From a virus (taxonomy: Duplodnaviria > Heunggongvirae > Uroviricota > Caudoviricetes), in the IMG/VR virus record IMGVR_UViG_2529293138_000012, positions 1 through 40,322 of that record: 40,322 nucleotides of DNA. The stretch is one strand, 5' to 3'. The position numbers are program-made. Position 1 is the first letter of the stretch. Each line of letters begins with the position of its first letter. This document shows, piece by piece, positions 30,001 to 33,000 of this stretch.

Positions 30001-33000
30001 GACGCGTCAGCGGATGCGCCAATAGTGTTTTTACTCTCTGTAGTATTCTCTGAAGTAATCTCTGTTGTATTCTCTGTAAGATCGAAATTGGTTTTCCCTT
30101 CTCCGCAGCGAGTGGTTTCCCGTGTCCGCGGTGAAGGATTTCCCTCCTCCGCGAAATTGGATTTTACAGTTTCCCGAAAACGGGTTTCCCCATTTCTGGA
30201 AAACTGATTGTTTTCATTGATAATTTCATTAAGGCGCTCACAATCTATACGGTAGAACATTTTGTGCTCAAGACGCTTGTTGGTTTCAACCAAAATGCCT
30301 CTTGACACAAGATGCTTACGCGCTACAGCCTGTTGTTCAAATGTAAGTCCGGTTTCGTGTTGTATCTCTTCACGCGTTTTATGTACGCCTTCCGCTGCAT
30401 GTGCTTTATCCTGCCAGTAAAAAATCTGACCAAAGAAAATAACAGCGTGCGGACTTCCCATGTATTTAACGAGCCCAGGGTAATAAGCAACCGGATGTCC
30501 AAAATCGAGTAGAAGATCAGACGGACGCATAGCCACCTCCCAGGCGTTTAAACATTTTTCCGGACTGAAACGCCACCAGCGGATAACTCAGGGTATGAGT
30601 ACGTCCCTGAACCTGGCAGACAACCTTCTGGCTTTCTGTATTGACCAGGCAAACCCGCAGAACGTGGCCGTTGCTGGTGGTGAACCACTGCCCCACACGG
30701 GGGCAACGGTTGTATCGGTGATACAGGGAATTAACGATGCGGCGAATCATGGGCGCACCTCCCATTGATTACGGCGGAAAGCAGTGTGATTCAGACTGGT
30801 TTCAGCCTCATGGAATGCTTCAATGCAGCTCTCGTAGTACCGCATTGTGCGCAGACTTAACCCAAGCTGAAGCATCATCAGCCCATCAAGGGTGATGTAA
30901 TAACCACGCAGGGAATCGCCATACACGTGGTAAGTACCCGGAATGAAATTACGGGAGAAGAATTCACGTGAGCAGTTTAGATACTCGATTTTGTCGACGA
31001 TGTTCTGGTGCATGCGCTTAAAGTGGCAGGCAACATGCAGGGAGAAAATAACGGCCTTGCCGTTGACGGTCTCAATTTTGAGGAATGGGTGAGTAGTGGT
31101 GGTAGTCATGGTGACAGCCCCTTGTGTGTGTGCTTTACAGCTACCACCCACGGATGCGAAACCATGATTGGTGGCAGCCCAGACAGGATTCGCATTACCG
31201 GACACACAAGGGAAAACCGGCGCTTCCGAAGAAGCTCCCATCTGAGCCGCCATTGAATAGACGTGCGCAGACAAAAAAACACGCTTACGGCGTGTCAGCC
31301 CTGTGTGATGTTTCGGGATGCGAAGCCCGGTTGCTGGATTTACAGCAACGCGGGAAATATAACCCGGAACACCAGCACAGCGCAATAGTTTGAGATATTC
31401 GAAAAGAGATGTAGTAACAACCTTACCGTTGACGGTCTCAATTTTGAGGAATGGGTGAGTAGTGGTGGTAGTCATGGTGACAGCCCCGGTAGTCTGTTTT
31501 TTAGAAAACTCACCACCAAGGCTTTCCACGACCTTATAGGTGGTGAGACGTACAGGGGTGGAAATACCGGAGACTACCGAACCCGGCCCGACCGAAGTCG
31601 GCCCTGTACGCCCCACCATAATTTGGGCGTAGCAATGCTCATGACAAAAAAAAACCGCATGAGCGCGGTTATGCTCAGTAATCAATTTCGGGTTTCCACG
31701 CCCGGCACCCGCTTTATAAGGTGCAGGGACAGTGTAACGTCCAGAAATTGAGGAATCAATGTTTTGATAAAATTCAGCGATTAGAGGCTTCTTTTCTCCC
31801 CATATTAACTTTGAACAAAAGCTCCATGCGATGAGTCCAGATACCCCGTTCTTTGAGTTGTGCTCTGGCTTCTTCGCGCTCAGATACGGAAGTTCTGACA
31901 ATACGATTTCCAGCCAGATTGCGGCGATATTCTCCAAACGCGACTGACTGAAGGTATGCAACGGAGCTTTTGTACTGATAGATGGCTCTTCGAAGGCTGT
32001 TTTTATATTCCTTAGGTATATGTCCGAGATCGGCAAAAAGCTCATGAACGATATCGTGAACAAGCGGAACAACTTTGTATGGAATAACAAAGAAGCTTTC
32101 TGGATAGCGTTCAGCCAATACTTTAATGATTTCTTTATTTGCAAGATGCCTTGCTTTTCTTCCCATATACCATTCTCCATTACTCCAGATATCAGAATGA
32201 TATATCCAGATTTTTTAAGCAGTTCAAGCTTATGCAGGTGCTTCACACTCAACAAAATCACGACGAAACAACCACAACGGGCTGAAACATTCGTGCGGAT
32301 AGCCGTCACGCAGGTAAATGACTCGCTGCGTTTCAGACTCCCAGCGTATAACGTGGACACGACGCCCCCTTCCGTCACAGAACCAGCGATTGAGTACTTG
32401 CATTTGGATTTCATTCCACACCTACCCCTTCACGCTGATTCCAGTCATGAACAGCACGTTCTTTCGAATCAGGAATCTGGTTTGCGTTACAGCAAGTACA
32501 TGCGATGTAATAACCATCATCGCCATCCAGAAAATATTTCACCTCAATGAGTTGTACTTCCGGATTTCCGCAGAACGGGCAAGGTTTCAGATCGACATCA
32601 CCAGTTACACATGTCTTGGTTTGCATCATTTGTTCTCCTGTAAAAGATTCGCGAGCTCAGTGTTATGGGTAAACAGCCCATCCCATGTTTTCTTCATCGG
32701 TAGTTCGCCGTTCAGATAATGGCGATATAACCAGGCGGCACCTTTTTTCTTCAGGAGTGGTTTGAAAATCTCGCGCATTTCCCCGTTTTCCTGCTCAACC
32801 TGCCCAGAACGCTCAGTCAGGTATTGGTCACGTGCATACGCTTTTACACGCCAGCGCGGATACATAGCCTCAGGCCGGTCGTCATACAGCCAGTTACGCT
32901 CTTCAAGGAACGCATTAATCTGACGAGTGTTTACACCGTTGAGTTGTTTGCAGAACTGCACAGGAGTGATGCCATCGGCGAGATAGCTTTCGAGTTTGCT

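Follow-up and report, generated by a model that had tools for sequence, protein, structure and literature searches.

The viral record IMGVR_UViG_2529293138_000012 (40,322 nt; this whole stretch is referred to as the window, and positions are those of the window) carries, on the minus strand of a lambdoid prophage, two complete immunity-RNA modules placed in series upstream of a gene coding for a Rha-family regulator. The antisense RNAs of the two modules, both of the C4 type, differ in their loops, and each fits its own target only. The modules, being of different specificity, probably form tandem antisense-RNA locks before the Rha gene. On the same reading, the gene start lying between the two modules is that of a truncated gene, fused in phase to a portable cassette by homologous or illegitimate recombination. 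All the components of the locus (C4, isrK/seqA, a nesting of frames like that of Eta and Kil, and Rha) belong to known families; as a variant of an established system of phage immunity, the locus is rare, yet it has recurred.

A repeat search of the window detected a direct repeat (D1) with copies at 31049-31137 and 31415-31503, 89 nt long, 89% identical and 366 nt apart. The two copies share an identical core of 62 nt (31060-31121 and 31426-31487, with the features on the minus strand), and an exact repeat of this length in 40 kb rules out a chance origin. The first-pass annotation of this DNA had reported near-identical repeats of 67 bp, a fair approximation of the core. Both copies contain GGGGCTGTCACC followed by an ATG and then MTTTTTHPFLKIETVNGK, read on the minus strand. 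The two start codons, ATG-1 (31478-31476) and ATG-2 (31112-31110), are in phase (366 nt correspond to 122 codons) and no stop codon lies between them. They belong to an open reading frame (ORF) of 555 aa (30747..32414, minus strand) within a stop-free stretch of 560 codons, which ranks fifth in length in the window; this ORF overlaps a ProQ-like gene (32166-31774) and a DUF4222 gene, both in other frames. The coordinates agree with the first-pass annotation as to the ATG in each copy, the absence of stops between them, the 555 codons and the overlap with the ProQ-like gene in another frame. The repeat is the constant part of both modules, that is, the Shine-Dalgarno (SD) sequence and ∼24 initial codons of a gene for a Rha-family regulator. 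Copy 1 (31415..31503) contains an SD, ATG-1 and ∼24 codons of a truncated Rha-type gene (MTTTTTHPFLKIETVNGKVVTTSL), as delimited by the repeat search and the ends of homology to related loci. Copy 2 (31049..31137), placed by the repeat search and by homology to phiP27, contains an SD, ATG-2 and the beginning of the intact Rha gene. The latter (30747..31112, minus strand; 120 aa plus stop) codes for a Rha-family regulator or putative antirepressor, with a Pfam Phage_pRha (PF09669) score of 30.8 bits (cut-off 29.9) and a TIGR02681 score of 41.9 (cut-off 45.95).

An Rfam scan gave five matches on the minus strand, all over their gathering scores, which make up two complete modules with one copy of the repeat after each. 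Each module is composed of a promoter-like site, an isrK/seqA-like small RNA (sRNA) with decoys a1 and b1 and an intrinsic terminator, a C4 antisense RNA with a′ and b′ elements, and a target (a2 and b2) whose b2 part abuts and overlaps the SD of the next ATG. In module 1, the promoter-like site PisrK-1 (31731..31759) consists of TTGATT (31759-31754) and TACACT (31736-31731) separated by a 17-nt spacer, 6 nt before the 5′-end of the isrK-like RNA; its sequence and position are kept in 9 further module types. The isrK/seqA-like sRNA 1 (31646..31724; Rfam isrK match at 31724-31648, 62.9 bits, gathering score 50) includes a1 (31699-31692), b1 (31683-31674) and terminator T1 (31670-31646). It is followed by C4-1, a C4/CI-type antisense RNA (31536..31623; 81.9 bits with the Rfam C4 model, gathering score 45, and 100.6 bits with our own model R1), containing the b′ loop GTTCGGTAGTCT (31582-31571) and the a′ element ATTTCCACC (31565-31557). 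The target of C4-1 (31484..31529) comprises a2 (31529-31522) and b2 (AGACTACCGGGG, 31495-31484), the latter overlapping the SD of ATG-1. A consensus promoter scan reported only one site (TTGTCA-18-AATTAT, 31618-31647, minus strand), located between T1 and C4-1, which might give rise to a separate transcript for C4-1.

Module 2, all on the same strand, has the same layout. Its promoter-like site, PisrK-2 (31356..31385), consists of TTGCGC (31385-31380), an 18-nt spacer and TATATT (31361-31356); it was assigned from its position relative to the 5′-end of the isrK-like RNA, which matches that of PisrK-1, and has a weak -35 (3/6). A promoter function for both PisrK sites is suggested by analogy with the mapped PisrK of Gifsy-1 (PMC4825925). 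The c4-a1b1/isrK-like sRNA 2 (31273..31362) matches isrK (31349-31274, 63.3 bits) and c4-a1b1 (31362-31310, 47.0 bits, gathering score 46.7), while the c4-a1b1 model gave a sub-threshold 25.5 bits on module 1. This sRNA contains a1 (31325-31318), b1 (31307-31299) and terminator T2 (31296-31273). C4-2 (31167..31257; 74.2 bits with the Rfam C4 model and 78.3 bits with R1) is a C4/CI-type antisense RNA with a satellite-like scaffold, a b′ loop (TTTTCCCTTGTGTGT, 31216-31202) and an a′ element (AATGCGAAT, 31196-31188). Its target (31118..31161) is formed by a2 (31161-31154) and b2 (ACACACAAGGGG, 31129-31118), which overlaps the SD of ATG-2. A model match, an intrinsic terminator and position-conserved promoter-like hexamers, the features asked of Rfam RF01394 (isrK), were thus found at both modules. 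The C4 RNA is predicted to form two hairpins within a long closing stem, a structure supported by compensatory changes: over 9 distinct C4 types, 100% of the cells were paired and 11 of the 27 pairs were compensatory, a result reached by 0 of 500 shuffles.

The specificity of the two C4 RNAs was analysed by pairing their single-stranded elements only (loop-only duplexes); RNAduplex predictions for the whole C4 RNA against its flanks were discarded because spurious pairings of the closing stem dominated them. The cognate b′/b2 duplexes had energies of -16.0 kcal/mol for C4-1 and -19.9 kcal/mol for C4-2, and the cognate a′/a2 duplexes of -9.1 and -10.9 kcal/mol, respectively. The crossed combinations were weaker: -8.6 (b) and -3.8 (a) kcal/mol for C4-2 on the C4-1 target, and -6.7 (b) and -7.5 (a) kcal/mol for C4-1 on the C4-2 target. 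The decoys a1 and b1 behaved likewise, pairing with the loops of their own C4 (-8.9 and -15.7 kcal/mol in module 1; -11.1 and -14.0 kcal/mol in module 2). In the 40-kb window, the sole extended complement of each C4 loop was its own b2. Each b2 is made of a variable part and the constant GGGG of the SD, and the repeat starts precisely where the variable part ends. Seven loop types were present among related loci, each with its own matching SD-proximal target, and five a′/a2 pairs co-varied. A sample of 108 modules contained 63 distinct b′ loops, with a′ and b′ elements combined in various ways, which suggests a large and mostly uncharted space of immunity ‘barcodes’. The three sites b1, b′ and b2 change together.

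The origin of the tandem was traced through related loci. Escherichia coli 06-00048 has its ProQ gene and C4-1 loop in common with the window but lacks exactly one unit of 366 nt, so that module 1 leads directly into an intact Rha gene; its locus aligns to window positions 32450-31415 at 95.6% identity and to 31121-30700 at 94.1%. The cassette missing from this strain, formed by the junction and module 2 (31123..31414), is 97.3–97.9% identical in eight other tandem loci, whereas the body of the Rha gene is 88–92% identical and the upstream module 75–95%. Homology to other phages also breaks at the repeat: phiP27, which has a different C4, is 95% identical leftwards from 31124, the edge of the repeat, while homology ends at 31507 for ST64B (to module 1), at 31405 for PhiR63_1 and at 31415 for 06-00048. 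The same junction (…NGK.VTTSLF.YLKLLR…) was found behind five different upstream loops. In E. coli A34, the junction and the 366-nt spacing are the same and the second C4 is different, yet matched to its own target. The start-cassette-start form was present in all carriers of module 2 (9 of 5426 E. coli genomes and 6 of 6 IMG/VR contigs), and was found in none of 50,697 phage records. Lysogens with this prophage include E. coli RMDEC465, MFDS1022581 and CFSAN029787. Scans with the C4-2 loop gave no matches in GTDB species representatives or in metagenome contigs, the six IMG/VR contigs being the only ones, and no solitary module 2 was found in these collection scans. The range of module 2 thus appears to be narrow and limited to E. 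coli-like prophages. A recent or simple tandem duplication was considered and rejected, as only 62–89 nt are shared, the C4 RNAs are 59% identical and their scaffolds differ; to judge from this divergence, modules 1 and 2 are old paralogues. An assembly artefact was also rejected, since the arrangement occurs in nine complete genomes and six viral contigs.

C4-2 shares 80% identity with the C4 carried by a satellite-like island of enterotoxigenic E. coli (ETEC) H10407, 66% with P4 CI and 59% with C4-1. Its scaffold being nearer to those of satellites and P4 CI than to that of C4-1, there is a hint that immunity modules may have been exchanged between satellites and lambdoid prophages. The H10407 island (C4 at 5000-5087 of that locus) also encodes an integrase, AntA/AntB, DUF4222, ‘ash’ and a DUF5906 primase.

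A second example of the same design was found in E. coli SCU-111, in an unrelated element located next to pheA and containing a Cox-family gene. In this element, a 63-nt exact repeat covering positions -13 to +50 of the ATG (MATIPTQKRPKF…) lies around an extra isrK/C4 module, with a spacing of 360 nt. Each C4 fits its own b2, and the ORF that opens at the first start continues across the whole of the added module up to a TGA directly adjoining the second ATG. On this comparison, the tandem design with a truncated start arose twice. Complete arrays of [isrK-C4-Rha] units were also detected, with three units in one locus (L057) and two in four others (L019, L035, L037 and L002); a further locus (L010) has three modules. 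The units of these complete arrays are heterospecific, each with its own matched target, and are spaced 656–659 nt apart. While in the arrays a whole gene follows each module, in the window the first gene is reduced to ∼24 codons and fused in phase, with a spacing of 366 nt. The complete arrays are likely precursors of the truncated tandem.

These relatives bear on the possibility that only one module is functional, with module 1 orphaned or module 2 a relic, the tandem being a neutral transient that is resolved by repeat-mediated deletion. A direct repeat with 62 identical nt lends itself to deletion, strain 06-00048 looks like the resolved state, the arrangement is rare, and the Eta-like frame of module 1 lacks a canonical start. 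However, both modules retain a fold detectable by covariance models, the terminator, a1/b1, and matching a′/b′ and a2/b2 elements; moreover, five different intact and self-matched modules are found upstream and two downstream, and an independent element has the same design. A single functional module is therefore unlikely, although it is the best of the alternatives to two working locks.

The in-phase frame deserves separate consideration. ORF-1 (30747..31478, minus strand) reads for 242 aa from ATG-1 via module 2 into the Rha gene, a nesting similar to that of Eta and Kil, and is open in 10 of 10 tandem loci (242–243 aa), including that of A34 with its different second C4. Over ∼300 nt, ten modules contained no in-phase stop codons, versus 3–9 and 1–5 in the other two frames (in the window, 9 and 3 for module 1, 4 and 2 for module 2, and none in phase for either); the distance from isrK to the ATG was 237, 243 or 246 nt in these ten modules. 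In an IMG/VR sample of 103 distinct modules, 79 (77%) were open for at least 88 codons from a conserved AUG in C4, compared with 9% and 2% in the other frames; the rest had a stop after 14–54 codons, in the style of Gifsy-1 orf45. Nevertheless, variability (entropy) was equal at the three codon positions of the modules (0.94/0.95/0.97), unlike in the Rha gene (0.12/0.07/0.41), which argues against a protein-type constraint in the modules. The frame of the module is kept open and its peptide is not conserved as a protein.

Translation of the inter-repeat segment matched Pfam Phage_ASH (PF10554) with 33.0 bits, module 1 did so with 41.7 bits and five relatives with 33–56 bits (7 of 7 tested). 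Phage_ASH is the in-phase translation of the isrK-C4 RNA module. The first-pass annotation had found the inter-repeat translation not obviously protein-like; its sole match is indeed to this family, a translated RNA module without protein-type constraint. It had also held that a continuous ∼240-aa protein conserved among relatives would speak against its interpretation. Formally, such a frame exists (242–243 aa in 10 loci), although it reflects conservation of the RNA and a frame kept open, not a conserved protein. In relatives, a single long coding sequence (CDS) through the module is annotated as ‘ash family protein’, ‘Rha protein’ or sb41, and in four of them (L002, L003, L004 and L005) the start of the long frame overlaps the upstream gene by ATGA. 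The frame of module 2 in the window starts at the remnant ATG-1, a start with the C4-1 target at its SD. The calls ‘ash family protein’, some ‘Icd-like’ calls and over-long ‘Rha’ calls correspond to translations of the RNA module (31113-31790 in the window; also L001–L005, L133, that is, strain 06-00048, and L134), and PGAP assigns an ATC start to such a CDS in the last two. The CDS of the ProQ-like protein was left unannotated in several E. coli genomes in which the long ORF is called. In some genomes, RNA-module translations called as genes displace real ones, the ProQ-like gene being an example.

A true two-domain ‘Ash-Rha’ protein, or real N-terminal isoforms to which the RNA-family matches would be secondary, would account for the ORF of 242–243 aa being unbroken in ten loci, for the Phage_ASH match and for the PGAP label, and P4 does translate Eta (PMC10111431). 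It is not expected to show, however, the equal variability at the codon positions of the modules, the compensatory changes in the stems or the hypervariable loops that co-vary with their targets, and a quarter of the modules close the frame before the gene, as orf45 does. This explanation is considered very improbable. Least credible of all is an inert recombination scar, that is, a partial duplication of a gene start with a non-functional spacer in which the downstream start alone matters: the upstream copy does hold a gene start cut short, a relative lacking the unit exists and the arrangement is seldom found in genomes and never in the phage records, but the spacer is above gathering for isrK, c4-a1b1 and C4, has a terminator and a perfectly matched SD-proximal target paired at -19.9 kcal/mol, and shows higher conservation than the coding DNA on either side; in A34, moreover, a different C4, again fitting its own target, has taken the place of the second one. 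The recombination scar or partial duplication proposed in the first-pass annotation is upheld as far as the upstream copy goes, which, by comparison with 06-00048, is a truncated Rha-type start derived from recombination; the spacer is not inert. Nor is a low-complexity spacer supported, since this DNA holds a complete isrK and C4 module, equipped with a terminator, a cognate target and a promoter-like site, and is 97–98% identical among loci versus 88–92% for the coding sequence.

Two working locks, the preferred explanation, would operate as follows, in a scheme drawn from P1, P4 and Gifsy-1. During lysogeny, transcription would start from both promoters and mostly stop at T1 or T2, yielding IsrK-like sRNAs, while read-through transcripts would be processed to stable C4 RNAs. 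C4-1 would mask the SD of ATG-1 and C4-2 that of ATG-2; the untranslated RNA would be terminated and no Rha would be made. With two terminators and two translational blocks ahead of the replication genes, these may be silenced too. Since the module-2 frame is open from ATG-1, ribosomes could traverse module 2 once lock 1 is relieved; they would run from ATG-1 through the module and override lock 2, as in P4 Eta, yielding a 242-aa form beside the 120-aa form. Alternative N-terminal isoforms, suggested earlier for this locus, are to this extent plausible (242 and 120 aa), in parallel with P4 Eta and Kil (PMC10111431). Having two C4 specificities should, in addition, enable the prophage to silence in trans any incoming phage or satellite with one or the other.

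Several points weigh against this scheme. The consensus promoter scan reported neither PisrK site, both having 8 of 12 matches and lying below the threshold, so what identifies these promoters is their conserved position only. For the module-1 frame, the surroundings of the ProQ stop offer no canonical start, and upstream coupling in the P4 style appears to be absent there. The consequences proposed in cis (a double lock, an override by ribosomes and polarity towards the replication genes) are extrapolations from P4, P1 and Gifsy-1, and these model systems differ: the IsrK of Gifsy-1 activates, whereas P4 CI and P1 c4 repress. All the tandem loci of the Rha lineage share one junction, and one fusion in three would be in phase by chance; the in-phase ORF-1 therefore counts as one evolutionary event, plus that of SCU-111. 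Finally, the high identity of the cassette could come from recent spread instead of selection.

The locus was compared with three known systems. As in the immI region of P1 and P7 (c4-icd-ant), its antisense RNAs belong to Rfam family RF01695. The specificity of the P1 and P7 c4 RNAs reportedly lies in their loops and leads to heteroimmunity, in work from 1990 by Citron & Schuster and from 1992 by Biere et al. Unlike P1 and P7, which have one c4 each, the window combines two specificities in one genome, the gene presumably controlled is a small Rha-type one, and a1/b1 are separated from C4 by a terminator of the IsrK type.

The immunity region of P4 (PLE-seqA-CI-seqC, eta/kil) also contains an isrK/seqA-like element, a C4/CI RNA and an SD-proximal target in one stop-free frame. 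In the P4 sequence, the CI RNA (8507-8420) is in phase in a frame of 217 codons, whose ATGs overlap the ORF88 stop and whose internal ATG at 8365 leads to the 65-aa Kil. In P4, eta is translated in coupling with the gene before it, its translation prevents termination, and Kil corresponds to the C-terminal portion of Eta (PMC10111431). The window resembles P4 in that an internal ATG gives a short product, in that the modules precede the replication genes, as CI lies before alpha, and in the Kil start (MATTLTPSHPEF), which resembles the repeated gene start. It differs from P4, with its one module and Kil, in having two heterospecific modules in series, a Rha-domain regulator as the short product, and a module-2 read-through frame that begins at a truncated gene start bearing the target of another C4.

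The isrK-orf45(STnc1160)-anrP region of Salmonella Gifsy-1 likewise comprises a promoter, IsrK with its terminator, a processed C4-like RNA and an antirepressor-like gene, a region whose mechanism has been studied (PMC4825925), and IsrK and STnc1160 are expressed in Gifsy-1 lysogens (PMC4825925; PMC7067206). Gifsy-1 has a single module and a separate 45-codon ORF, which covers the C4 region and is translationally coupled to anrP, while the window has a frame that continues in phase into the gene. The searchable literature yielded no account of heterospecific modules being stacked or of a truncated-start cassette, an absence that is not proof; the tandem, truncated arrangement appears to be undescribed.

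RNA-based phage immunity is classically exemplified by C4/CI-type RNAs, which have been examined one module at a time; the present locus shows that specificities can be stacked, and that a small cassette consisting of one module and a copy of the target-gene start sits behind many different resident modules. If both locks work, they would form a natural two-input RNA gate before an antirepressor-like gene and the replication genes, and would offer a prophage a route to widen its RNA immunity. A bolder proposal, put forward tentatively and judged rather doubtful, is that the cassette (truncated start plus module) is portable and spreads by recombination at the gene start, adding a satellite-like specificity (of the P4 or phage-inducible chromosomal island type) and giving rise to combinatorial RNA immunity, with the ProQ-domain protein as chaperone. 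In that case, the prophage would silence, or be silenced by, phages and satellites sharing either C4 ‘barcode’.

The modules and the Rha gene form part of the early-right operon of the prophage, on the minus strand, with a divergent cI-like repressor gene. Leftwards, the operon contains genes for a Cro-like protein, an ORF6N/KilAC antirepressor, Lar, DUF4222 and the ProQ-like protein, followed by module 1, the remnant start, module 2 and Rha, and then by an 82-aa ORF, an O-like replication gene with iteron-like repeats, and DnaC-like and DnaB-like genes. The ProQ/FinO-domain gene (31774..32166, minus strand; 130 aa; Pfam ProQ, E=1.3e-13) ends 15 nt upstream of the -35 of PisrK-1. It was found in 14 of the 5426 E. 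coli genomes, always beside DUF4222 and an ‘ash/Rha’ ORF; its protein had no tblastn match in the 50,697 phage records and gave one cluster only in a search of 5.8 billion proteins. Because the host ProQ has been reported to associate with IsrK in Salmonella (PMC5391140), the ProQ-like protein could, by analogy, be a dedicated chaperone of the adjacent RNAs. The antirepressor-type gene with ORF6N and KilAC domains and the Lar restriction-alleviation gene occupy 32411-33498 (minus strand), upstream of the modules; the ORF6N/KilAC gene being in the same early operon as Rha, the prophage therefore encodes two different antirepressor-like proteins.

As for the remainder of the long frame, ∼348 of its 560 codons are accounted for by the two modules and Rha. 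The other 213 codons, an extension over the ProQ-like and DUF4222 genes, are probably open by chance, because the window contains several plus-strand open stretches of 300–400 codons, some of them within long minus-strand open frames. A meaningful extension was considered and rejected on this account and because the extension is missing in four loci (L001, L008, L009 and L012). The DUF4222 part of the frame is common by descent to two others, L006 and L007, in which a frame of 531–585 codons (1055-2200 in L006) covers the alternative frame of DUF4222 and the antisense of a TumE-type toxin-antitoxin pair; the window counterpart of this over-long frame is 31774-32429 (minus strand), over ProQ and DUF4222. 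Further downstream in the operon, the O-like gene (ORF 29622-30536, minus strand) contains three overlapping 21-nt copies of a repeat with a 12-nt period (TA.TCTCTG..G) at 30032-30076, which look like origin iterons, as in lambdoid phages with the replication origin inside gene O.

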